Both the position numbers and the translations under genes were made by a program. The notes under the pieces are model-generated. The model searched no databases and was not told where the DNA came from. It saw only the letters and a program-made list of their open reading frames with translations. DNA of 64,000 bases from an uncultured Candidatus Saccharibacteria bacterium (GTDB taxonomy: Bacteria; Patescibacteriota; Minisyncoccia; Phycocordibacterales; XYD1-FULL-46-19). This document shows, one piece after another, positions 19,981 through 50,371 of the stretch; position 1 is the first letter of the stretch; each line of letters begins with the position of its first letter. The stretch covers positions 142,305 through 206,304 of the forward strand of contig CAZXCI010000001.1 of NCBI GenBank assembly GCA_964639285.1, given 5' to 3'.

Positions 19981-20667
19981 GTGTTAAAGTCTTCAAATAT
20001 GAAGCCTCGCTATTTGATTTTAATTCTCATCATTGTTTTCTTCGCTGAGTCCTTTTTGGTTGTGCCTGAAGTTTGGGGTCCAGGAAAGCGATTTTTGGCG
20101 GCGGTCTTGCCGGCCCTAATTGTGGATTATACAAATATCGACCGAAGAGCTGACCAGAAGGGGCCTCTCAATGTCAATCCTCTGCTAACAAAAGCGGCCG
20201 AGCTTAAGGCTCTCGATATGGCCACACGGTCTTATTTTTCCCACCAAGGTCCTAAGGGCGAGACCCCCTGGAGTTGGTTTGATAAAGTTGGCTATAAGTA
20301 TGTCTATGCCGGAGAAAACCTCGCCCTCAATTTTTATGAGTCAAGTGAGGTCAATCAGGCCTGGATGAATTCGCCGAAGCATCGGGAAAATATTTTGGAT
20401 AAAAATTTCACAGATATCGGGATCGGTATGGCCCTGGGCAAATTTGAGGGTCGGGATAGCGTTTTCATTGTTCAATTTTTTGGCAGTACCCAGGAGTCAT
20501 TAACGAAACAGGCAAAAATGTCTCAAACTTTACCTCGTTTCAAACATACCAGTCTTGTCTCGGCCGCGGTTGGTTTATCTGACGGCGTCTTAATTAAGTT
20601 GAGATCAATCTCTTTGCCAGTTATTCACTTTTTTGGTTACCCGACAATTAACGGTCAAATTATTTAA
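19981..20667 (+). CDS. CAP/SCP/PR-1 domain protein (YkwD-like), membrane anchored
   Basis: ALDMATRSYFSHQGPKGETPWSWF...GENLALNF...WMNSPKHRENIL pattern of the CAP superfamily. Confidence 0.7.
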   Translation: MLKSSNMKPRYLILILIIVFFAESFLVVPEVWGPGKRFLAAVLPALIVDYTNIDRRADQKGPLNVNPLLTKAAELKALDMATRSYFSHQGPKGETPWSWFDKVGYKYVYAGENLALNFYESSEVNQAWMNSPKHRENILDKNFTDIGIGMALGKFEGRDSVFIVQFFGSTQESLTKQAKMSQTLPRFKHTSLVSAAVGLSDGVLIKLRSISLPVIHFFGYPTINGQII

Positions 20668-20670
20668 GTT

Positions 20671-21744
20671 ATGCTTCTTCGTTTTGGTCGACGAGCGAGT
20701 AAGATTGGGGTTTATCTTTTTGCTTTCATCGGCTTCGTTTTAGTTGTTGGTTGGTTTGGGCTTCGCTTTGGTCTGACGAAGACGGCGGGTAGGGTCGATT
20801 TTAATGACCGTTATTTTAAAGATGTTGCTGAACAGATTCGTCTTGTCGATCTCTCGGCTCCTTCAGCTAAGACGATTTTTTCTAATAACTGTCAGTTACT
20901 GGTGATTAATCGCCTTAACGCTCCGTTAGGGAGGAGCCTTCTAAACGTTTATAATGCGAGTCGTTCTGAGAAAGTTTTGGCCAAAGCCCTCTTAGCTTCG
21001 GATATTTTTCTAAAAGATAATCCTGCCTACAAAAATGGGCTTAAGTCTTGCAACGAGTTCTCTAGTAGCCTGGGCGGGGGGTCTTCTTCTGATCACTCTT
21101 ATTCTTGGCTCTCGACACCCGATTGGCAAGTCTTGAGGGTGGCTATTGCCAAGGACAAAGATCACATCAATAAGGCGGCAAAGGTCTCGGGGATTAACCC
21201 GCGATTGATCGTAGGGGTGTTGGTAGGGGAACAATTACGTCTTTATAATTCTGAGAGAGAAGTTTATAAACAAATTTTTCAACCATTAAAAATTCTTGGG
21301 GTTCAGAGTCAATTCTCCTGGGGGGTGACGGGTCTTAAGGAAGAGACAGCGGTTCAGATTGAGGATAATTTACGGGACAGGAAGTCTCCTTTTTATCTTG
21401 GTCAAGAGAAAGAAAATCTTCTCGATTTTAACACTGACAACCCTTCATCTGAGCGCTTTATGAGACTAACTGATAGTCACAATCATTATTATTCCTACCT
21501 CTATACTGGACTTTACCTCAAGCAACTTATTACCGAATGGCAAAAAGCCGGTTATAATATAGAAAACCGCCCGGAGATTTTGGCCACTCTCTTTAATCTC
21601 GGTTTTGCTAAGTCGAACCCTAAGCCCGACCCTAAGGTTGGTGGCGCCGAAATTGAGATTGGAGGTGAAGTTTATAGTTTTGGGAGCCTGGCTTATCAGT
21701 TCTATTATTCGGGAGAGTTAATCGAAGAATTTAATTGGCAATAA
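20671..21744 (+). CDS. hypothetical membrane-anchored protein (357 aa)
   Basis: N-terminal TM; no family recognised. Confidence 0.45.
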   Translation: MLLRFGRRASKIGVYLFAFIGFVLVVGWFGLRFGLTKTAGRVDFNDRYFKDVAEQIRLVDLSAPSAKTIFSNNCQLLVINRLNAPLGRSLLNVYNASRSEKVLAKALLASDIFLKDNPAYKNGLKSCNEFSSSLGGGSSSDHSYSWLSTPDWQVLRVAIAKDKDHINKAAKVSGINPRLIVGVLVGEQLRLYNSEREVYKQIFQPLKILGVQSQFSWGVTGLKEETAVQIEDNLRDRKSPFYLGQEKENLLDFNTDNPSSERFMRLTDSHNHYYSYLYTGLYLKQLITEWQKAGYNIENRPEILATLFNLGFAKSNPKPDPKVGGAEIEIGGEVYSFGSLAYQFYYSGELIEEFNWQ

Positions 21745-21753
21745 AATAATAAT

Positions 21754-22263
21754 ATGGTTTTAACTCCTCATGCTGTCGTCGGTGCTGCTCTTGCTTCAGC
21801 CTTTGGGCTTGGTCCTGGGGGCGCTCTGGTTGCCGGTTTTGTCAGCCACTTCTTGTTGGATAGTCTTCCGCACTGGGATTACAAATTAAGTTCGGCAAAT
21901 ATCGACGAGGAGAATCCTTTTAATGACGATATCCCCATAAGTCGAAAATCTCTCCGCGATTGGGCGAAGATTGGTTTGGACTTGGCTCTTGGGCTAGGCC
22001 TTATCTTCCTCTTCTTTTCTCTGAACGGGCAAGGTGTCAGAGTTGTCAGTCTGTTGGCAGGGGCGCTAGGCGGTCTTTTGCCCGATGGATTGCAGATTCT
22101 CTTTATGAAATTACGTCGCGAACCACTAAAAACTTTTTTTCGTTTTCATCTTTTTATGCACTCACCTCGACGGATTAGAGACACTCTTTGGGGCCCTTTT
22201 TGGCAAGGGATAATTCTTCTGCTCGCACTTATACTCGGGAATTGGAGCTTCTTTATTTGGTAA
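21754..22263 (+). CDS. membrane-bound metal-dependent hydrolase-like protein (YdjM/DUF457-like)
   Basis: multi-TM protein with a SHFLLDSLPHWD motif. Confidence 0.45.
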   Translation: MVLTPHAVVGAALASAFGLGPGGALVAGFVSHFLLDSLPHWDYKLSSANIDEENPFNDDIPISRKSLRDWAKIGLDLALGLGLIFLFFSLNGQGVRVVSLLAGALGGLLPDGLQILFMKLRREPLKTFFRFHLFMHSPRRIRDTLWGPFWQGIILLLALILGNWSFFIW

Positions 22264-22825
22264 TAAAGGTATCTACTTTACCTATAAGACCAGTAGCGTC
22301 ACCTTCGATTCCGGTAACCTCACCTTCTAAGCCGGAGACTTCACCGGTAATACTAGTGACATTGCCGCGTATTCTAGATGTATCGCCAATTAGGTTTGTC
22401 ACGTTGCCAGAGATCTCAGTGACGTCACCTTGGATACTTGAGACATCGCCAATTAGGTCGCTAACATTTCCTTTGATCTTGCTAACATCACCACGGATAT
22501 TGGAGACATCACCACGGATATTGGAGATATCACCATAGAGTCCAGAAATGTCTCCGCTGACATTTGTTGTGTCTCCTGTGAGGTGGGTAACGTTGCCACG
22601 GATATTGGAGACATCACCACGGATATCACTGACTGTTCCAAAAATGCCACTAATGTTCCCGCTGATATGGCTTGGGTTGCCGATAATCTGGTGGAGAGTG
22701 ACATCGCCATAGATCTTAGATACGTCACCGCGGAGCTTGGAGAAATCTCCCCAGATAGCCTCGTGAACATTCTCGACATTATCGGTATTCTCTTTAATTT
22801 TTGGATTAACTCTTTGTAGGGCCAT
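22253..22825 (-). CDS. tandem heptapeptide-repeat protein (about 20 repeats of G-[DN]-[VIT]-[ST]-x-[IL]-x)
   Basis: translation shows consecutive GDVSNIR/GDVSKIK/GNVSDLI/GDVSSIQ... units; the DNA has the matching 21-bp periodicity. Confidence 0.6.
   Translation of the reverse strand: MALQRVNPKIKENTDNVENVHEAIWGDFSKLRGDVSKIYGDVTLHQIIGNPSHISGNISGIFGTVSDIRGDVSNIRGNVTHLTGDTTNVSGDISGLYGDISNIRGDVSNIRGDVSKIKGNVSDLIGDVSSIQGDVTEISGNVTNLIGDTSRIRGNVTSITGEVSGLEGEVTGIEGDATGLIGKVDTFITK
22290..22760. repeat. imperfect 21-bp tandem repeats (coding; encode the heptapeptide repeats)
   Basis: visible periodicity in the sequence, e.g. repeated GATATTGGAGACATCACCACG units. Confidence 0.6.
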
Positions 22826-22851
22826 GATTATAATGATATTATCTAGTAATT

Positions 22852-23625
22852 ATGACCATTATAGCATCAATTATCCTAGGAATAGTAGAGGGGGTGACTG
22901 AGTTCCTACCTATTTCATCCACCGGACACCTGACTTTAACAGTTGACCTTTTGGGTATTGCTCAGACGGAATTTGTGAAGAGTTTTGAAGTGATCATCCA
23001 GCTGGGGGCAATTTTGGCTGTTGTTGCTCTCTATTGGCAGAAACTTTTGACCAACACTGCTGTCCTTAAACGAGTTATCGTTGCCTTTTTGCCGACAGCG
23101 ATCTTGGGTTTGACCTTCTATAAAGTGATCAAGACTTATCTCTTGGGCAATAGCCTTGTTGTTCTTATCTCCTTGTTTGTTGGCGGTTTAATTTTGATTC
23201 TCTTTGAACTTTTCTACCAAGAGAAGGACGATGACAAAGTTGACCTCGAACAAATATCTTATCCACAGGCCATTGCCCTTGGCCTTTGTCAGTCAATAGC
23301 CATGATCCCCGGTGTTTCTCGTTCGGCGGCAACGATTGTTGGGGGCTTGGCTTTGAGGATTAGACGAGAGACTATTGTTGAATTTTCTTTTTTGTTGGCG
23401 GTACCGACCATGGCAGCGGCGACCGGTTTAGACATCCTTAAGAGCTCTTTTGGTTTTTCTGCGGGGGAGTGGGGCTTGCTGACTTTGGGCTTCTTTGTTT
23501 CTTTTCTTTCTGCTCTGTTGGCTATTAAATCATTCTTAAATTATGTCCGCCATCACGATTTTATTGCCTTTGGCCTCTACCGAATTGTTATTGCCCTCGT
23601 TTTTCTCTCTATTTTCTTTGTGTGA
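22852..23625 (+). CDS. uppP: undecaprenyl-diphosphatase
   Basis: N-terminal signature GVTEFLPISSTGHL and a multi-TM profile. Confidence 0.9.
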   Translation: MTIIASIILGIVEGVTEFLPISSTGHLTLTVDLLGIAQTEFVKSFEVIIQLGAILAVVALYWQKLLTNTAVLKRVIVAFLPTAILGLTFYKVIKTYLLGNSLVVLISLFVGGLILILFELFYQEKDDDKVDLEQISYPQAIALGLCQSIAMIPGVSRSAATIVGGLALRIRRETIVEFSFLLAVPTMAAATGLDILKSSFGFSAGEWGLLTLGFFVSFLSALLAIKSFLNYVRHHDFIAFGLYRIVIALVFLSIFFV

Positions 23626-33186: not shown

Positions 33187-34200
33187 ATGGCTATTTTAAC
33201 GACAAAATTAGGGATTGATTTGGGTACAGCTAATACGCTGGTCTATGTTCCTGGCAAGGGGATTGTCCTTAACGAGCCCTCAGTAGTAGCTGTTAACCAG
33301 AATGATAATCGTGTGGTGGCGGTTGGCTCAGAAGCTAAAGACATGGTTGGCAAAGCGCCGGATAGTATTATGGTCTACAAACCAATGAAGGATGGGGTTA
33401 TTGCTGATTATCGAATTACCGAAGCCATGCTTCGTTATTATATTTCTAAGGCCCTTGGCCGTTTTAATCTTTTCAAACCAGATATTATGGTTTCGGTACC
33501 AGCCGGAGTCACTTCAACAGAGAGACGGGCAGTGATTGAAGCAACGATGCGTGCTGGAGCCAAGAATGCTTATGTGGTCAAAGAGCCTATTCTTGCTGCC
33601 ATCGGAGCCGGTATCCCTATTTACGAAGCGCATGGTCACATGGTGGTGGATATTGGTGGCGGAACGATCGATGTCGCTGTCATCTCTCTTGGCGGAATTG
33701 TTTCTTCTACTTCAGTCAAGCATGCAGGCAACAAAACAGATCAAGCGATTGCTGATTATATTAAGAAGACCTTCAATCTTGCTATTGGTGACAAGACCGC
33801 CGAAGAGGTTAAAATGTCAATTGGTTCGGCCATACCAGTCGAGGAGGAATTATCCTATATTATTAAAGGCCGAGATTTTTTGACTGGATTGCCTCGTTCG
33901 GCTGAGATCAGGACCAACGAAATTGTTCGAGCGATTGACAACGAGCTGAAGGAGATTGTTCGAGCGATTAAAGTTGTCTTTCAAGAAACTCCACCTGAGT
34001 TATCGGCTGATGTTATTGATCAGGGGATTACCTTAACGGGTGGTTCTTCTCAACTTCGCAACTTGGCCGAGCTTGTTTTTCGTAAGACGGGAGTGAAGGC
34101 TTATGTAGCTGACGATCCTCTTTATTGTGTTGCTAAGGGTACGGGTATTGCCCTCGAACATCTTGATGTCTACAAAAAAAGCATCATCTCTAAACGCTAA
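33187..34200 (+). CDS. mreB: rod shape-determining protein MreB (paralogue 1)
   Basis: actin-fold signatures GIDLGTANTLVYV and DIGGGTIDVAVIS. Confidence 0.9.
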   Translation: MAILTTKLGIDLGTANTLVYVPGKGIVLNEPSVVAVNQNDNRVVAVGSEAKDMVGKAPDSIMVYKPMKDGVIADYRITEAMLRYYISKALGRFNLFKPDIMVSVPAGVTSTERRAVIEATMRAGAKNAYVVKEPILAAIGAGIPIYEAHGHMVVDIGGGTIDVAVISLGGIVSSTSVKHAGNKTDQAIADYIKKTFNLAIGDKTAEEVKMSIGSAIPVEEELSYIIKGRDFLTGLPRSAEIRTNEIVRAIDNELKEIVRAIKVVFQETPPELSADVIDQGITLTGGSSQLRNLAELVFRKTGVKAYVADDPLYCVAKGTGIALEHLDVYKKSIISKR

Positions 34201-35592: not shown

Positions 35593-36702
35593 ATGACCAT
35601 AATTCTTTTCATTGTTGTTCTTGCTATCTTAATCCTCACTCATGAGCTTGGGCATTTTTTGACGGCGAAGTGGGCGAAAATTCGAGTTGATGAATTTGGC
35701 CTTGGTCTCCCACCCAAAATTTGGGGGATTAAGTGGGGGGAGACTGTCTATTCTATCAATTGGTTGCCTCTCGGAGGCTTTGTCAAAATTTTTGGTGAGG
35801 ATCCCAATGAAGAAAATATTAGTGGACCCGATAGTGCTCGTTCTTTTGTTAATCGGCCGAAGTGGGTCCAGGCTGTCGTTTTGGTGGCTGGCGTTACTCT
35901 TAATTTTGTCCTGGCCTGGGTTCTAATCTCCATTAATCTTGGGATTGGGATGCCGGCTGGTCTTGAGGATTTGCCGCGTGGGCTTCAGGTGAGAAATGAA
36001 TCACTCTCCATCGTTAATGTCTTAAGAGAATCTCCAGCCTCTGAAGCGGGCCTTCAGGTTGGAGACAAATTGATTTCTTTTTCTTCGGGAGAAGAAAAGA
36101 TTATTGATCTCTCTGTTGAGTCGGTCCATAATTTTACCAAGAAATTTCCTGATCAACCGATCAAGGTTGAATATGTTCGCTCAGACTCTAGCTCGGGACA
36201 GAATTCTGTTGCCACGGTTATTCCTAAGTTGGGGGTAACGGGGAACGAAGCCGCGATTGGTATTGCCACACAGAAGATTGGGATTGTATCGGCCTCTTGG
36301 TGGCAGACTCCTTTCTATGGTCTTTTCTTTTCTTATCATCTGACAATTAACACATTGCTTGCTTTTGGTGATTTCTTCTCCAACATCTTTTCTTCGGGGC
36401 GAGAGGCGCTGGGAGCAATTGCTGGACCGATTGGTATTTATAGTTTGATTGATGACGCGAGCCGTCTTGGTTTTGTCTATATTCTAAATTTTGTAGCTTT
36501 AATCTCTATCAACTTGGCGATTCTCAACCTCCTCCCTTTCCCAGCTCTCGATGGTGGTCGGCTACTCTTCGTCATTATTGAAGCTGTTATTCGTCGACCA
36601 ATCAATCCCAAAGTGGCCAGTGCTCTCAACTTGATTGGCTTTGTCCTCCTGATTCTGCTTATGTTCATCATCGCCGTGAGCGATATCTTCAAACTATTAT
36701 AA
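35593..36702 (+). CDS. rseP: RIP zinc metalloprotease RseP (site-2 protease, M50)
   Basis: HELGHF (HExxH) in the first TM, PDZ domain, C-terminal LDGG motif. Confidence 0.85.
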   Translation: MTIILFIVVLAILILTHELGHFLTAKWAKIRVDEFGLGLPPKIWGIKWGETVYSINWLPLGGFVKIFGEDPNEENISGPDSARSFVNRPKWVQAVVLVAGVTLNFVLAWVLISINLGIGMPAGLEDLPRGLQVRNESLSIVNVLRESPASEAGLQVGDKLISFSSGEEKIIDLSVESVHNFTKKFPDQPIKVEYVRSDSSSGQNSVATVIPKLGVTGNEAAIGIATQKIGIVSASWWQTPFYGLFFSYHLTINTLLAFGDFFSNIFSSGREALGAIAGPIGIYSLIDDASRLGFVYILNFVALISINLAILNLLPFPALDGGRLLFVIIEAVIRRPINPKVASALNLIGFVLLILLMFIIAVSDIFKLL

Positions 36703-38097: not shown

Positions 38098-39150
38098 ATG
38101 TGGCGGAATATCCCAAAATTTTTTTCCAGTGCCATCGGGGTTGATTTGGGTACTTCCAACACTCTTATTTATGTTAAGGGTAATGGGATAGTCATCGTTG
38201 AACCTTCAATTGTTGCGATTAATCAGAAAACGGGTCGTGTCGTGGCTGTGGGCGAGGATGCTAGCCAGATGATCGGCCGAACGCCCGCTCATATCCAGGC
38301 GATTCGCCCGCTGGTTAACGGCGTTATTTCTAATTTCGAAATGGCCGAGGAGATGCTCTCTTATTTTCTTAAGAAAGCGGCGAACCTTAGTGGTAACAAT
38401 TTTTTTCGACCTCAAGTTGTCGTTGGGGTTCCCTCGAGTATTACCAATGTGGAAAGACGGGCCGTGCGGGATGCCTTGATCAATGCTGGAGCGAGAGAGG
38501 TTCACGTTATCGAGGAGCCAATGGCGGCGGCGATCGGCATTAATATGCCAGTTTATGATCCGGTGGGGAATATGATTGTCGACATCGGTGGCGGAACGAC
38601 AGATATTGCGGTGATTTCTCTTGGAGGTGTTGTTCGTTCTAAGAGTTTGCATGTTGCCGGCGAGCGATTTAACCAAGACATTATTAATTATGTTCGTGAT
38701 GAGTTTAAGATTCTTCTGGGCGAAAGGACGGCCGAAGAAGTTAAGGTTGCGATTGGCTCGGCCCTGCGTCAAGATTCGGGGAACGAAACTTTGGTTCGTG
38801 GTCGGGATCTTGTTACTGGTCTTCCTCGTGAAGTGGCCATTACTGATTCAGACATTCGAGAAGCAATTTTCAATTCCCTAGCTATTTTTGTTGATGCGGT
38901 TAAAGAGGTCCTTGAATCAACTCCGCCTGAAGTTGTCTCTGATATTATGCGCCGGGGATTGGTTTTAACGGGAGGAAGCGCCACTTTGCGTGGATTGCGA
39001 GAATTGCTTGAGAAAGAATTGGAGATTCCTATTCACTTGGCTGAGGATCCCTTGATGGCCGTCGTGCGAGGGACGGGGGTTGTCTTAGATGATCTCGACC
39101 AGTACCGTGATATTTTAATTGATAATGAAGATGAATTACCCCCACGTTAG
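38098..39150 (+). CDS. mreB: rod shape-determining protein MreB (paralogue 2, upstream of mreCD)
   Basis: GVDLGTSNTLIYV and DIGGGTTDIAVIS. Confidence 0.85.
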   Translation: MWRNIPKFFSSAIGVDLGTSNTLIYVKGNGIVIVEPSIVAINQKTGRVVAVGEDASQMIGRTPAHIQAIRPLVNGVISNFEMAEEMLSYFLKKAANLSGNNFFRPQVVVGVPSSITNVERRAVRDALINAGAREVHVIEEPMAAAIGINMPVYDPVGNMIVDIGGGTTDIAVISLGGVVRSKSLHVAGERFNQDIINYVRDEFKILLGERTAEEVKVAIGSALRQDSGNETLVRGRDLVTGLPREVAITDSDIREAIFNSLAIFVDAVKEVLESTPPEVVSDIMRRGLVLTGGSATLRGLRELLEKELEIPIHLAEDPLMAVVRGTGVVLDDLDQYRDILIDNEDELPPR

Positions 39151-39957: not shown

Positions 39958-40183
39958 CCTGACTCTCTTAGTCCTTCTTTCCTCTGTCTTGTTACCTTGG
40001 TGGTTTAATGTTTTTGTCTTACTTTTTTTGATCTTTCTCTTTTCCTGGTATTATGAAGCGGGAGTGTTAGTTTTTGTTTTCGAGTTAATTTATGGTTCAG
40101 GCCATTTTTGGCTAACGATCATAGTTATCACTCTTATACCTTTGATAGAATGGCTTAAAAAGAGGTTATATGTTTTTTCCTAG
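39941..40183 (+). CDS. mreD: putative MreD (short, 80 aa, polytopic)
   Basis: called by position and hydrophobicity only. Confidence 0.35.
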   Translation: MTQRFSLTLLVLLSSVLLPWWFNVFVLLFLIFLFSWYYEAGVLVFVFELIYGSGHFWLTIIVITLIPLIEWLKKRLYVFS

Positions 40184-41852
40184 ATTCAAAAAAAGATGGC
40201 GTTATAACGATCTCTCCCCAGACGAAATTTTTGTTGATGCCAGTAATTTGCCTTCTTATAACGAGCAACAATTTGAGGGTCGAATCGAGAGACCGATCAA
40301 TCGCCAGACTTTTGTCGGTGTAGCCTTTTTTTGTTTTGCGATTGCTTTGATTTTTGTTGTCAGAATCTTTTTTCTTCAGGTTATTAATGGAGCAGATTAT
40401 GCTGAGCGAAGCCGTAGTAATAGTTTGAGTTTTACTCCTATCTTTGCCGAACGAGGAAATATTTATGACCGAACAGGGCAAGAGCTGGCCTGGACGGATA
40501 AGTCTCGTGTTTACTTGGCCGAAGAAGGGTTGGGCCATGTTCTCGGTTATGTCAGTTATCCTAATGAAAAAGAAATGGCCACGGGAAAATATGACCCTAA
40601 AGAATACTTAGGGCGCGCTGGAATTGAAAAAGTTAATAATGACGATCTGCTTGGGGGCCGAGGAGTTCAGATTATCGAAGTGGATGCGAAAGGACAAAAA
40701 TTATCGGATCATATTGTGAAGAAGCCTTTGCCAGGCAAAGAGTTAAGACTTTCTATTGACCACCGAGTTCAAAATCAATTTTATCTAGCCATCAAGCAAT
40801 TGGCCTTAGATCGAGGTTTTTCTGGTGGGAGTGGTGCGATTATGGATGTCGAGACCGGAGAAGTTCTTGCTCTTGTTAGTTATCCCGATTTTGATTCGAA
40901 TATTCTCTCGGACGGTAAAGATGTGGAAACTATTAACAAATATTTTTCTGACAAACAAAATACGATGCTCAATCGAGCCGTTGGTGGGCTCTATACTCCA
41001 GGTTCAATTTTTAAACCTTTTGTTGCTCTTGGAGCTCTCGCCGAGAAGACAGTCGATCCACTAAAATCTTTTGTGACCAACGGCGAACTTGTTATCCCCA
41101 ATCCTTATGATAAAACCAAGAAAACTGTTTTTAAAGACTGGAAAAATAATGGAGTAGTAGATATGCGGCGAGCTATTGCTGTATCTTCGAATGTCTATTT
41201 TTATATCATTGGTGGTGGCTTTGGTGAGCAGAAAGGTTTGGGGATAGACAATATTGGAAGATACGCCAAGCTTTTTGGTTTAAGCCAGGAGACGGGAATT
41301 GGTTTGCCGGGCGAAGAAGAGGGGGTTATTCCTAGCCCTGCTTGGAAGGCTGAGACCTTCGGTGGGGAACCTTGGCGACTAGGGGATACTTATCATACCT
41401 CCATTGGCCAGTATGGTGTCTTGGTTACGCCAATTCAAATGGTCCGAGCTTATGCGGCTATTGCTAATAAGGGTAGATTAATTCAACCAACACTCCTTTC
41501 TATTAAGCCAGAGCAAGCAGTAATTCAAGCTTCTGTTCCTATTGGTGCCGATAATTTCAAAATTATTCATGAAGGGATGAGACGGGTTGTTTTAGAGGGG
41601 ACAGCTCAGGGTCTAAATATGCCAAATGTTGAAATTGCCGCTAAGACGGGGACGGCCGAATTGGGGGTAACCAAGGAAAAAGTTAATTCTTGGGCCGTCG
41701 GTTTTTGGCCTTATAATTCACCACGTTTTGTCTTCGCTGTTGCTATGGAGAAGGGATCAAGAGCCAATTTGTTTGGCGGTGTCTATGCCATGCGCCAACT
41801 CTTCGACTGGATGACAATCAATACCCCAGAATATCTATTGCCCAAAGTTTGA
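40170..41852 (+). CDS. mrdA: penicillin-binding protein 2 (elongasome transpeptidase)
   Basis: SxxK (GSIFKP), SxN (SSN), KTG (KTGTAE). Confidence 0.85.
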   Translation: MFFPRFKKRWRYNDLSPDEIFVDASNLPSYNEQQFEGRIERPINRQTFVGVAFFCFAIALIFVVRIFFLQVINGADYAERSRSNSLSFTPIFAERGNIYDRTGQELAWTDKSRVYLAEEGLGHVLGYVSYPNEKEMATGKYDPKEYLGRAGIEKVNNDDLLGGRGVQIIEVDAKGQKLSDHIVKKPLPGKELRLSIDHRVQNQFYLAIKQLALDRGFSGGSGAIMDVETGEVLALVSYPDFDSNILSDGKDVETINKYFSDKQNTMLNRAVGGLYTPGSIFKPFVALGALAEKTVDPLKSFVTNGELVIPNPYDKTKKTVFKDWKNNGVVDMRRAIAVSSNVYFYIIGGGFGEQKGLGIDNIGRYAKLFGLSQETGIGLPGEEEGVIPSPAWKAETFGGEPWRLGDTYHTSIGQYGVLVTPIQMVRAYAAIANKGRLIQPTLLSIKPEQAVIQASVPIGADNFKIIHEGMRRVVLEGTAQGLNMPNVEIAAKTGTAELGVTKEKVNSWAVGFWPYNSPRFVFAVAMEKGSRANLFGGVYAMRQLFDWMTINTPEYLLPKV

Positions 41853-47061: not shown

Positions 47062-47345
47062 TGTTGGGAAGAAAATTAAAATTGATAATTATCGTCATGA
47101 TCCTCGTCTTAGCCGGGACCTATGTCTATTTGGTTAAGAGCTCCGTTTTCTCGGTGGCTGAACGAAACGATAATGAGGAAAAAATTTCTCAACTTGAAGC
47201 AGACGTCTCAACCTTAGAAGCAGACTATATGACACGGTCTAATAATGTTACACTAGAGTTGGCCCGATCACTTGGTTTTCTTGACGCTACCGGTAAGGCC
47301 GGCTTCGCGCTTAAGAATCGCCCGGTGGGAATGGCTAATAATTAG
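47061..47345 (+). CDS. ftsL: cell division protein FtsL-like (TM plus coiled coil)
   Basis: position between rsmH and ftsI; single TM followed by a heptad-like region. Confidence 0.5.
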   Translation: MLGRKLKLIIIVMILVLAGTYVYLVKSSVFSVAERNDNEEKISQLEADVSTLEADYMTRSNNVTLELARSLGFLDATGKAGFALKNRPVGMANN

Positions 47346-49063
47346 TGATGAAGACAAGTGTTTCGAGAATTAGGTTTTTGGGCTTGGCCACTTTCGCGGT
47401 GGCTATTTTGTTTGTCATTCGACTTTTTTTTATTCAGGTAGTGCAAGCTGATTACTATTCTGGCTTGGCTGATCGTCAATATCTCCGGCCAAGTGTTGGA
47501 GCCTTCGACCGGGGGAGCATCTTTGCGTTGAAGCGAGACGGGACAATTTTTTCTCTGGCTGGTTTGCGGACAGCCTATATCGTGGCGATTGCCCCTAAAC
47601 AATTAATTGCCAACGGCGTCAAAGCCGAAGAGCTCTACGAGAAATTAAACAAGATTGTGCCAGTTGATAAAGAATCCTTCATGAAGTCGATGGCTAAGGC
47701 AGAAGACCCTTATGAAGAAGTGGCGACAAAAGTTGACCAAGCGACAGCTGACAAGATTAAACAGCTTAACATTAAGGGCGTTAATTTATATAAGCAAAAG
47801 CTCCGATCTTATCCCTTAGGTTCGACGGCCGCTCATGCTATTGGTTTGCTTGGTTATAAGGGTGATGACCTGGCCGGACGTTATGGCCTAGAGCGTTCTT
47901 ATGATGAAATTTTGTCACGCAAAGGAGAGACCACTTTTGCCAATTTTTTTGTGGAGCTTTTCTCGGGTTTAGGGAAAAGCTTGACGAATGATAAAGATAA
48001 TAATCAGGGCGACATTACTACTACCATTGAACCAATTACTCAAAAATTATTGGAAAAAGAATTATCAACGGTTAAGGAGAGATGGCAGGCCGATAGTGCG
48101 GGAGGGATTATCCTTGACCCTAAGACTGGTGAAATTTTTGCGTTGTCGGCCTTCCCCAATTTTGATCCCGGACAGAAACAAACTGATCTTGCTGTTCTAT
48201 CTAATCCTTTGGTTGAAAAAGTTTATGAGATGGGCTCGATTGTCAAACCTTTAACCATGGCGGCGGCCCTAGATGCCGGTGTGGTGACGGAGACAACAAC
48301 TTATGAGGACAAGGGTTGTATAACTTTGAACAAAAAAGAAATTTGTAATTATGATGGTAAGGCTCGCGGAGTGGTGCCGATGCAAGAAATTCTCAGTCAA
48401 TCTCTAAACTTAGGAGCAACCTTTGTTCAGCAGAAATTGGGGCCAGAGCGCTTCCGTGATTACTTTACTGCTTTTGGCCTAGGAGAGCCGACGGGGATAG
48501 ATCTACCGAGCGAAGGTTCGGGTTTGATTAAAAACTTGAAGAGCTCTTATCCGGTAGACTTGGCCAATATCTCCTTCGGGCAGGGGATTGCGATGACCCC
48601 GATTGAGATGACGCGAGCCTTATGCGTGCTTGGTAATGGTGGCTATCTCATTGAGCCTCACTTGGTGAAGAAGATTGATTATCAGAACAAATTATCACGG
48701 GTGATTGAACCTAAGATCGGAGCCCAGGTTATTAAGAAAGAAACAAGCGAGCGTATCACTCGAATGTTAGTGGCGGTGGTTGACAAGAAACTAGCTAATG
48801 GCAAAGCTAAGATGGAGAACTACTCGATTGCCGCTAAGACAGGTACAGCCCAGATTTCTAATCCGGCGACGGGCAAGTATTATCCTGACCGCTACCTTCA
48901 TTCCTTCTTCGGCTATTTCCCGGCTTATGAACCACGTTTTCTCGTTTTCATGTATATAGTGTATCCTAAGGGAGTGCGCTATTCCTCCGAGACCTTGACT
49001 GAGCCCTTTATCAATATTTCCCGATCTTTGTTAAACTATTATCAAGTCCCACCAGATAGATAA
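47345..49063 (+). CDS. ftsI: penicillin-binding protein (FtsI/PBP3-type transpeptidase)
   Basis: SxxK (GSIVKP), SxN (SQSLN), KTG (KTGTAQ). Confidence 0.85.
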   Translation: MMKTSVSRIRFLGLATFAVAILFVIRLFFIQVVQADYYSGLADRQYLRPSVGAFDRGSIFALKRDGTIFSLAGLRTAYIVAIAPKQLIANGVKAEELYEKLNKIVPVDKESFMKSMAKAEDPYEEVATKVDQATADKIKQLNIKGVNLYKQKLRSYPLGSTAAHAIGLLGYKGDDLAGRYGLERSYDEILSRKGETTFANFFVELFSGLGKSLTNDKDNNQGDITTTIEPITQKLLEKELSTVKERWQADSAGGIILDPKTGEIFALSAFPNFDPGQKQTDLAVLSNPLVEKVYEMGSIVKPLTMAAALDAGVVTETTTYEDKGCITLNKKEICNYDGKARGVVPMQEILSQSLNLGATFVQQKLGPERFRDYFTAFGLGEPTGIDLPSEGSGLIKNLKSSYPVDLANISFGQGIAMTPIEMTRALCVLGNGGYLIEPHLVKKIDYQNKLSRVIEPKIGAQVIKKETSERITRMLVAVVDKKLANGKAKMENYSIAAKTGTAQISNPATGKYYPDRYLHSFFGYFPAYEPRFLVFMYIVYPKGVRYSSETLTEPFINISRSLLNYYQVPPDR

Positions 49064-49066
49064 AAC

Positions 49067-50371
49067 ATGAAAAGAGTTATCAAATTAATCATCTCCACCA
49101 TTCTCCAATTTGAGGCGCGTTTGGTCCTTAAGAAATATAAGCCTAAGATTATCGGGATTACTGGTAGTGTGGGGAAGACCTCGACCAAAGATGCCATTGC
49201 CTCTGTCCTCGGCAAGAGCTTGTCGGTGCGAGCGAGTGAGAAGAGTTACAACAGTGAGGATTTTGGCATTGCCTTGACAGTTCTTGGTTGTCATTCGGCT
49301 TGGAATGACCTCTTTGGTTGGGTGGAGATTATGATTTATGGTTTGGTCTTAATAATTTTCAAAAGAGATTATCCGGCTTGGCTAGTGCTTGAAGTGGGAT
49401 TAGAATATCCGGGCGAAATAAAAAAAATTCTTAAGTGGGTTAAATTTGATTTGGCGGTTATTACTCTTCTGCCCGATGTCCCGGTACACGTGGAATTTTT
49501 CAAAGATAAAGAAGAGGTCATTAATGAGAAAATGCTTCTAGCTAAGTCGGTACCGGCTAGTGGTCAGGTTTTCTTAAATGCTGATGATCCTAATTCTTTA
49601 AAATTTTTATCCGAAATTAAAGCCGAGGTCTCGACGCTTGGTTTTTCTTCCCAAGCCGATTATCAAGCTCTTGCTCCGGCAATTACTTATCGACTTGAGG
49701 GCGAAAACTCTGTCCCGACCGGTTTAACCTTTGAGCTCAAGCGTAATGAAAAGAATTTGGTTGTTCAGGTCGGAGGGGTTGTCGGTGAACACCAAATTTA
49801 TCCTGTTCTCACGGCTCTGGCTGTGGGAGATAAGCTTGGCCTCAAGATGATAGAGATGATTTCTTCTCTTAGCGAATATCAGCCACCAGCCGGGCGCTTA
49901 AGATTGATCACGGGGATTAAAGAAACAATGATTCTTGATGACACCTATAACGCTTCGCCTTCAGCTGTCTCAGCTGGTCTCGTCACCCTTGGTAACTTTG
50001 TGGTGACGGGACGGAAGATTGCTGTTCTTGGTGATATGCTCCAATTGGGCAAATATACTGTCGAGGCGCATAAAGCAATTGGCTATCAAGCTAAAGAGAT
50101 CTGTGACCTGGTGGTAACGGTTGGTTTGCGTTCAAAATTTATCGAAGAAGCCTTGCGGGAGAAAAAATTTGGCGAACGCAAGATGAAACATTTTGCTGAT
50201 TCGGTAGAAGCGGGGGAATATGTGCAGAAGATCATGAAAGCTGGAGATCTTATCTTTGTTAAGGGTTCGCAGGGGATGCGAATGGAGAAAGTAGTAGAAG
50301 AGATAATGGCCGAGCCAGACAAGAAAGAAAAACTCTTGGTGCGCCAGGAACGCGAGTGGCAGAAGTGTTAG
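49067..50371 (+). CDS. murF: UDP-N-acetylmuramoyl-tripeptide--D-alanyl-D-alanine ligase
   Basis: Mur-ligase P-loop GITGSVGKTSTKD and the central/C-terminal Mur ligase domains. Confidence 0.85.
   Translation: MKRVIKLIISTILQFEARLVLKKYKPKIIGITGSVGKTSTKDAIASVLGKSLSVRASEKSYNSEDFGIALTVLGCHSAWNDLFGWVEIMIYGLVLIIFKRDYPAWLVLEVGLEYPGEIKKILKWVKFDLAVITLLPDVPVHVEFFKDKEEVINEKMLLAKSVPASGQVFLNADDPNSLKFLSEIKAEVSTLGFSSQADYQALAPAITYRLEGENSVPTGLTFELKRNEKNLVVQVGGVVGEHQIYPVLTALAVGDKLGLKMIEMISSLSEYQPPAGRLRLITGIKETMILDDTYNASPSAVSAGLVTLGNFVVTGRKIAVLGDMLQLGKYTVEAHKAIGYQAKEICDLVVTVGLRSKFIEEALREKKFGERKMKHFADSVEAGEYVQKIMKAGDLIFVKGSQGMRMEKVVEEIMAEPDKKEKLLVRQEREWQKC

Follow-up and report, generated by a model that had tools for sequence, protein, structure and literature searches.

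A conserved array of glycine-led heptads

The DNA analysed here, called the window below, is a stretch of 64,000 nucleotides (nt) of contig CAZXCI010000001.1 (positions 142,305 to 206,304; assembly GCA_964639285.1) from an uncultured Candidatus Saccharibacteria bacterium. Between a membrane-protein gene and bacA/uppP, its minus strand holds an open reading frame (ORF) whose product, the query protein, had been described in an earlier note as almost entirely tandem heptapeptides with Gly at position 1 and hydrophobic residues at positions 3 and 6. Our analysis bears this out. After a non-repeat head, the protein runs through 23 consecutive units that start with Gly, 22 of them heptads and one of 9 residues (Table 1), with the consensus G-[DN]-[VI]-[ST]-x-[IL]-x. 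Gly occupies position 1 in 23/23 units, position 3 is mostly V or I, and position 6 is I, L or V. Residue identity at a lag of 7 is 0.38, compared with 0.08 in shuffled sequences (z=15.4), and it decays steadily to 0.33, 0.31 and 0.29 at lags 14, 21 and 28, which indicates that the heptads are equivalent and follow no 14- or 21-residue super-period; at lags 5 and 6 it is lower than random. The head already carries the heptad d rhythm (I10, V17, I24), with the polar residues N7, T14 and H21 at a, and H21 and W25 are invariant in the alignments. The protein is acidic, with a net charge of about -9. No hydrophobic N-terminal signal peptide, transmembrane segment or membrane anchor was seen in its sequence: the N-terminus, MALQRVNPKIKENTD, has neither a hydrophobic signal nor a Cys, and the C-terminus, ...GLIGKVDTFITK, has no foldon-like sequence.

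Table 1. Features of the heptad gene and its borders (positions in the window; aa, amino acids; bp, base pairs).
Feature	Position	Strand	Description and basis
Heptad-repeat ORF	22253..22825	-	190 aa, ATG start, stop codon 22253-22255; ORF list
N-terminal non-repeat head, aa 1-25	22751..22825	-	MALQRVNPKIKENTDNVENVHEAIW; alignments; helix predicted in both AlphaFold2 runs
Heptads 1-2, aa 26-39	22709..22750	-	GDFSKLR, GDVSKIY; helical in both AlphaFold2 runs
9-residue unit, aa 40-48	22682..22708	-	GDVTLHQII; sole register break (+2 residues)
Heptads 3-22, aa 49-188	22262..22681	-	20 unbroken units, from GNPSHIS to the degenerate last unit GKVDTFI
Sole near-perfect 21-bp DNA repeat	22485..22535		2.4 copies, 96%; encodes GDISNIR-GDVSNIR-GDV; Tandem Repeats Finder
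11-nt overlap of 3' ends, heptad gene and convergent membrane-protein gene (21754-22263, +)	22253..22263		ORF list
Divergent spacer between heptad gene and bacA/uppP (22852-23625)	22826..22851		26 bp, AT-rich, TATAAT-like hexamers on both strands

The exact query protein is absent from the large protein and gene-position collections that we searched. Orthologues were nevertheless recovered by pattern scans from two sources: a genome scan with a two-sequence alignment found L005, in a Candidatus Paceibacterota metagenome-assembled genome (MAG; 82% identity to the query), and L006, in a MAG labelled Saccharibacteria (57% identity), while L010-L015 lie on metagenome contigs (71-83% identity). Paceibacterota correspond in current taxonomy to the phylum Minisyncoccota, within the candidate phyla radiation (CPR). 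Together these are eight distinct orthologues from Paceibacterota and related CPR bacteria, 57-83% identical to the query and 189-192 aa long, without any internal gap. All eight have 22 heptads and the 9-residue unit at the equal position, with GD[VI][TDY][LI][HY][QR]I[ITNS] as the consensus of the latter, and single units can be recognised between species (e.g., GNVTHLT, GDVSGLY, GNVSDLIGDVSSIQ and GLEGEVTGIEGDATGL).

Between the query and L005 the proportion of nonsynonymous differences (pN) is 0.11 and that of synonymous differences (pS), which is saturated, is 0.75. The gene order Eno-GpmA-UppP, heptad gene, membrane protein-unk357-CAP is maintained in six loci, and in every comparison made the heptad protein is better conserved than enolase or UppP; its identity is 82% against 59% for enolase in L005 and 71% against 52% in L015. 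We conclude that the heptad ORF is a true chromosomal gene of Paceibacterota, inherited vertically and under strong constraint. The earlier note had named absence or frameshift of the ORF in close relatives as a result that would refute its view; we found it intact in 8/8, and the gap-free orthologues, the pN/pS values and the synteny together remove the reading that it is spurious.

Likeness to trimeric coiled coils

All significant matches of the query in Pfam, PHROG and the PDB are coiled coils, aligned in register with V/I at heptad position a and I/L at d. In the PDB these are 8qox_B (2.9e-7), gp26 of 4lin (1.7e-5), fibritin of 1avy (1.8e-3) and the TAA stalk of 2wpr (0.01), all of which align in register with aa 49-188. 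Among PHROG families, phrog_19577 (virion protein of SPO1-like phages) matches at 3e-13 and phrog_1219 (tail needle) at 3e-7, and a profile of terminally capped relatives (see below) matches gp26, the SlaB-like stalk, cavin HR1, fibritin and Lpp. Pfam returned DUF1664, Baculo_PEP_C, LPP, FlaC and P10. The score against DUF1664 (PF07889) is 36.0 bits, above the cut-off of 34.6, with the best stretch covering profile positions 88-121 of 124. We considered membership of DUF1664 and treat the match as a coiled-coil cross-hit, given the partial cover of the profile and the lack of any DUF1664 match in the relative P0006. Against LPP (PF04728) the query scores 25.4 bits, under the cut-off of 29.1, and relatives with long arrays reach 46-50 bits, over it (49.9 vs 29.1).

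The best PDB matches, P22 gp26 (PDB 4LIN, 2POH) and the SlaB-like S-layer stalk (8QOX chain B), align in register over about 100 residues and have S/T/N-rich heptads with I/V at a, L at d and an occasional Gly at the Gly position of the query. Both are extracellular or virion fibres with extra domains or a membrane anchor, whereas the query has neither. T4 fibritin (PDB 1AVY/1AA0) contains two consecutive Gly-bearing heptads, GNISSLQ GDVQALQ, in register with GNVSDLI GDVSSIQ of the query; we take the fibritin heptads to lie in the alpha-helical coiled coil of the solved trimer. In this alignment, which spans only 39 coiled-coil residues, GNISSLQGDVQALQ of the last coiled-coil segment of fibritin is aligned to GNVSDLIGDVSSIQ of the query, and KGNISSLQGDVQALQ pairs with KGNVSDLIGDVSSIQ. 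Fibritin is a segmented phage fibre that ends in the foldon beta-hairpin domain and has Gly only occasionally, unlike the query, which is chromosomal, lacks a foldon and has Gly in all 23 units.

Lpp (Lpp-56, PDB 1EQ7; sequence verified), a parallel trimer, shares with the query x-D-V-x-x-L-x heptads with Asp at g, Val at a and Leu/Met at d. It has about seven heptads without Gly at f, carries a signal peptide with a lipobox and is attached to murein through a C-terminal Lys, whereas the query has 23 units with Gly in each and no visible signal peptide or lipobox. Finally, gp284 of SPG24 (phrog_19577, annotated 'minor head protein'), from an SPO1-like Bacillus phage, is the strongest match at the level of families and carries about 18 heptads of [ST]-D-[VIM]-[ST]-x-L-K, which reproduce the D-V-S-x-L pattern of the query. 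This virion component, whose gene adjoins baseplate and tail genes, differs in having S/T/K/E rather than Gly at f and a C-terminal globular domain.

Given this in-register likeness to solved trimeric coiled coils and the strict 3/4 spacing of the hydrophobic residues, which is that of a and d, we favour, at a probability of about one half, the reading that the query is a fixed-length, parallel and probably trimeric coiled-coil rod that serves as a scaffold or spacer. This reverses the ranking of the earlier note, which had placed a solenoid or beta-roll above a coiled coil with one Gly per heptad. Each chain would form one long alpha-helix, and parallel chains, probably three, would wind into a rod built from heptads of the Lpp/fibritin type. 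The core would consist of positions 3 (a, V/I) and 6 (d, I/L); D/N at position 2 (g) would pair with R/K at position 7 (e) of an adjacent helix, position 4 (b) would hold S/T, and the invariant Gly at position 1 would lie at the outward-facing f. We infer a trimer because beta-branched residues stand at a and d and all PDB matches are trimeric; according to the 1993 work of Harbury et al., beta-branched residues at both a and d reportedly favour trimers.

The rod would have two segments, of about 5 nm (residues 8-42) and about 21 nm (residues 49-189) at 0.148 nm per residue, joined by the 9-residue unit as a fixed hinge or a break resembling a beta-layer. This unit is a candidate for a hinge or a discontinuity of the beta-layer type, as in trimeric coiled coils an insertion of 2 residues makes a nonad out of a heptad and forms a beta-layer (Hartmann et al., 2016, eLife, PMC4786415). 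The query has exactly one such conserved unit, and we regard the likeness in length of its nonad V-T-L-H-Q-I-I-G-N to those of alpha/beta coiled coils as a lead only.

The unit count and the residues that tell one unit from the next are both strictly conserved between species, and on the coiled-coil and the beta reading alike this points to a scaffold or spacer of fixed length with specific binding surfaces and not to a surface protein that varies or is prone to slippage. The cytoplasm would be the simplest location, since neither a hydrophobic signal peptide nor a membrane segment was seen.

The case for a beta-fold and other readings

The structure prediction that the earlier note had proposed as a check gave a long helix from the single sequence and a low-confidence, non-helical model when an alignment was supplied. 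In 2/5 single-sequence AlphaFold2 models, helices cover residues 8-42 and 51-189 with a predicted local distance difference test score (pLDDT) of 84, rising to 94-98 over aa 90-190, and the helix breaks exactly at the 9-residue unit. Around this unit the pLDDT falls below 50 in both runs (aa 44-49 for the single sequence, 40-51 with the alignment). Fold searches of both models against the PDB and BFVD found no significant match, within the limits that a single long helix matches anything and that the alignment-based model is too poor.

A number of observations weigh against a helical rod. The other 3/5 single-sequence models are poor, and AlphaFold2 with a 54-sequence alignment (pLDDT 60) keeps a helix only at aa 17-39 and leaves the repeats extended; beta-bridges are scattered over aa 54-97, where they fall on V-S and I-x positions. 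The alignment, with 748 columns, contains many gaps, which makes this result weak. Further objections come from composition, for which we built a unit profile from 1116 units of 101 family proteins, Gly at position 1 being fixed by the definition of a unit. Position 2 is D in 59%, N in 18% and E in 7% of these units; position 3 is V in 61% and overall V/I/A/C/L; position 4 is S (53%) or T (35%); position 6 is I (44%), L (44%) or V (10%); and position 7 is variable (R 18%, S 14%, K 10%). Position 5 is dominated by the turn-type residues G (29%), N (21%) and D (9%). Among internal units, Gly stands at position 1 in 728/741 (98.2%), with T, S, E, D and N as rare replacements, and an exposed f position gives no reason for this. 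The mean helix propensity of the query is 0.60 kcal/mol per residue, compared with 0.40-0.50 for Lpp, gp26, the SlaB-like stalk and fibritin (0.44-0.45 for gp26 and the SlaB-like stalk). This propensity is poor, and with one to two Gly per heptad the composition does not suit a helix; the depletion of Pro in the family arrays (about ten-fold, to 0.41%) does favour one. The array of the more distant relative P0006 holds several prolines together with 8-residue units.

Position 2 of the family units, moreover, tends to alternate between D and N in successive units (z=-5.4 at lag 1, z=+4.3 at lag 2), which also counts against a plain rod and could reflect a two-unit structural period or the duplication of two-unit blocks. 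We tried to derive a coil size from such unit-lag statistics and dropped the attempt, as the D/N alternation is the only signal that stands out and is confounded by block duplication. Weak charge coupling, confined to helical spacings, favours the rod: an acidic residue at position 2 goes with a basic one at i+5, the g-e' pair (odds ratio (OR) 1.41, p=0.04), and at i+3 (OR 1.98, p=0.007), whereas i-2 shows no coupling and the relation at i+12 is weakly inverse (OR 0.72, p=0.05).

The strongest alternative, which we consider possible though less probable than the rod, is a heptapeptide beta-solenoid or beta-roll in which each 7-residue unit forms one side of a coil, either as a monomer with 2-3 units per coil or as an intertwined triple beta-helix. 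G-D/N and the G/N/D-rich position 5 would be turns, V and I/L would point inward, and Asp/Asn and Ser/Thr would form ladders. Such a fold would suit the near-invariant Gly at position 1, D/N at 2, S/T at 4 (88%) and G/N/D at 5 (59%), as well as the poor helix propensity and the two-unit period of position 2. Consistent with it are also the loss of the helix and the beta-bridges in aa 54-97 when AlphaFold2 is given the alignment, the presence of pentapeptide-repeat helices (NleL, SV2A) among the top, non-significant fold matches of that model, the Cys at position 3 of every unit in some relatives, and the existence of relatives whose N- and C-termini bear distinct caps and whose arrays accommodate prolines and units of 8 residues.

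Known systems offer partial parallels. Solenoids of pentapeptide (Rfr) and hexapeptide (LbetaH) repeats, and the 7-residue beta-roll repeats of the YadA head (Hep_Hag) and of the ryegrass ice-binding protein (LpIBP), resemble the query in their short repeats with a small or turn residue plus D/N, one or two inward aliphatics and end caps; in the last two the heptad reads G-x-x-[SN]-x-[AV]-x, superficially like G-D-V-S-x-I-x. The query departs from Rfr/LbetaH in its period, 7 and not 5 or 6, and in its hydrophobic spacing, 3/4 and not 2. From YadA, whose beta-roll coils span 14 residues and alternate two non-equivalent heptads, it departs in the lack of a Hep_Hag match, in a lag-14 identity (0.33) below that at lag 7 (0.38), and in that position 2 alone alternates.

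Our searches brought nothing positive for this fold, the one preferred in the earlier note. Even at E<=10, none of the Pfam solenoid families Pentapeptide, Hexapep, Hep_Hag and Bactofilin matched the query, and no solved solenoid structure was matched by the query or by the profile of capped relatives. RTX/HemolysinCabind gave no Pfam match either, the units being 7 residues long with a single leading Gly and not the nonapeptide GGxGxDxUx. Self-contained solenoids are usually predicted confidently, whereas the alignment-based model reached a pLDDT of 60 and has no significant structural neighbour. The 3/4 spacing of hydrophobic residues is unlike the in/out alternation of a beta-strand, overall identity has no 14- or 21-residue super-period, and the Gly replacements (T, S, E, D and N) go beyond residues tolerant of left-handed turns. 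In addition, some relatives have only 5-6 units between their caps; this suffices for a coiled coil and is very little for a solenoid, of which it would form just 2-3 coils. A somewhat less probable and more far-reaching version, which we put forward tentatively, is that the array is the first known case of seven-residue sides in a beta-solenoid or triple beta-helix, or else a chain able to change from helix to beta-structure and back; it would then represent a new repeat-fold family in CPR, other bacteria, archaea and early regions of phages, whose capped phage forms would be host-takeover or mimicry proteins.

Repeat-number variation, which the earlier note had thought likely from the imperfect 21-bp DNA repeats, leads to a different reading, namely a contingency or variable-surface protein in which slipped-strand or recombinational change at these repeats yields length-polymorphic variants. 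DNA repeats are indeed present, as Tandem Repeats Finder reports two short arrays, at 22299-22345 (76%) and at the near-perfect stretch listed in Table 1, and the gene lies near envelope-related genes. Most 21-bp units have diverged, however, with a mean pairwise identity of 51%, which indicates that the periodicity is maintained at the protein level, and the units encoded by the near-perfect repeat are not identical in the orthologues. The equal unit count in all orthologues, free of indels down to 57% identity, does not support variation in repeat number and contradicts this reading at the species level; conservation of each individual unit, purifying selection and the lack of any hydrophobic signal peptide or membrane anchor seen in the sequence likewise speak against it, and we consider it very improbable. 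Least probable of all are a repeat-containing precursor of a ribosomally synthesised and post-translationally modified peptide (RiPP), despite a match to NCBIfam RiPP_TigB (NF047709) whose 30.2 bits fall far under the cut-off of 70, TigB repeats being hexapeptides and Pfam revealing no radical-SAM (S-adenosylmethionine) or other maturase domain in ten neighbouring ORFs, and a chance ORF arising from repeats opposite the real genes, since the repeats do open frames on the other strand (116, 108 and 78 aa) but the 190-aa frame is the conserved one, with pN << pS, across eight relatives.

Gene neighbourhood, wider family and significance

The heptad gene lies on the strand opposite to both of its neighbours. 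The overlap of its 3' end with the convergent gene recurs in L005 (6563-6573), and the arrangement is maintained in L012-L014. On its other side, the divergent spacer contains no obvious Shine-Dalgarno sequence before the heptad-gene ATG, and a promoter-like site for the plus strand lies at 22806-22834. Pfam identifies the divergent neighbour as BacA/UppP and assigns CAP, GpmA and enolase among the other flanking genes; the flanking proteins of 357 and 169 aa have no Pfam family. The CAP-domain neighbour named in the earlier note is confirmed at 19981-20667 (E=3e-15), whereas its label of YdjM-like hydrolase finds no support for 21754-22263 (Pfam YdjM E=0.08, 12.9 bits vs a cut-off of 29). A functional link to a YdjM hydrolase had been prompted by P0006, which lies tail-to-tail with a true YdjM gene; we rejected it, and the 169-aa membrane protein of the window is not significantly similar to that YdjM (E=0.31). 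In L006 the heptad gene lies 4 kb away from a group made up of the homologues of UppP, the membrane protein and CAP, and we therefore infer no functional coupling. The 357-aa protein (20671-21744) has an N-terminal hydrophobic segment and a faint match to DUF1402 only; it is syntenic and conserved in five relatives (51-59% identity).

Beyond these genes, the window is an ordinary stretch of chromosome with many genes for cell wall and shape, a set that is dense for a CPR genome. Two full-length MreB paralogues lie 4 kb apart (33187-34200 and 38098-39150), and near them are penicillin-binding protein transpeptidases (40170-41852 and 47345-49063), a Mur ligase (49067-50371) and an RseP-like M50 protease (35593-36702).

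An exhaustive phmmer search with the query returned 3886 clusters at E<=1e-3 and 563 at E<=1e-10; the latter figure is an upper limit, as it counts unrelated glycine-containing coiled coils (e.g., GEVNAVK arrays) beside the true G-[DN]-V-[ST]-x-[IL]-x family. Spacing between family units is 7 residues in 837 cases vs 8 in 28, so that about 3% of units are 8 residues long. One sub-family (P0006, P0127, P0096, P0011 and P0168) shares the query-type head NT.NV..[VL]H..[IV]WGDF, and another has the N-terminal motif KELINAENL.GD.S.IWGDAK. Many proteins of a capped sub-family, 105-150 aa long, have 5-12 heptads between an N-cap that is aromatic and hairpin-like (LYYYKDGKKV.G.H) and a C-cap (GNLD.CELT.EER..GV.I.DLI).

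Two members with the query-type head carry additional regions. In P0168 (L016:1837-3489), a 550-aa ORF, the head and about 14 heptads are joined to a hydrophobic stretch that resembles an internal signal and to a Secretin_N/Secretin domain; the ORF is either a true secretin fusion or a heptad gene run into a secretin gene. P0096 (377 aa) continues after its array with an apparent DnaJ-like CxxCxGxG zinc-finger cluster, recognised by eye, an S/T-rich linker and C-terminal hydrophobic segments; Pfam at E<=1e-4 gives a coiled-coil cross-hit only. If this assignment of zinc finger and hydrophobic segments is true, the array could be membrane-tethered.

The capped proteins occur in phage-like contigs among small early or DNA-metabolism genes, outside tail modules, which suggests an early or accessory phage role. 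P0017, P0023 and P0047 (L007, L008 and L009) lie on such contigs with many small unknown ORFs and have HNH, SNF2 helicase, DNA methylase, resolvase and metallophosphatase genes as neighbours. In the complete podovirus MW202691 (L003:5941-6342), the capped member UOF80481 has 13 units (e.g., GDCSSLR) with Cys at position 3 throughout and sits among early/DNA-metabolism genes such as SSB, not tail genes. The idea that the phage relatives are DNA mimics was rejected, as several are not acidic (e.g., P0029), and PADLOC found no defence-system match for the query or six relatives.

In line with the earlier note, which had recognised no named repeat family in it, the array has no named family of its own and differs from penta- and hexapeptide repeats; Pfam and NCBIfam give generic coiled-coil cross-hits only, and we found no dedicated Pfam, NCBIfam or PADLOC model for family members. 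The searchable literature held nothing relevant on a heptapeptide solenoid, a glycine-per-heptad coiled coil or DUF7891, and a paper on a 'novel heptapeptide repeat' in rhizobial PlyA/PlyB reportedly concerns parallel beta-helix glycanases. Heptad rod proteins as such are known. What neither Pfam and NCBIfam nor the literature searched describes is the variant found here, in which every heptad has an invariant Gly, the caps are defined, members are widespread among phages and CPR bacteria, and conservation is exceptional in Paceibacterota. Because Pfam absorbs the family only through spurious DUF1664, LPP and Baculo_PEP_C matches, a dedicated model would clean annotation.

If the coiled-coil reading is true, the query would be a three-stranded coiled coil of natural origin and great regularity, in which each heptad has an invariant Gly and often a second one, and would offer a test case for Gly at f in rod-to-rod packing, flexibility or conditional folding. 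If the beta reading is true, it would define a new solenoid class. The capped phage versions are candidates for early-gene functions, and the heptad protein itself is encoded by one of the best-conserved genes of its neighbourhood in Paceibacterota, organisms whose cell architecture has hardly been described.

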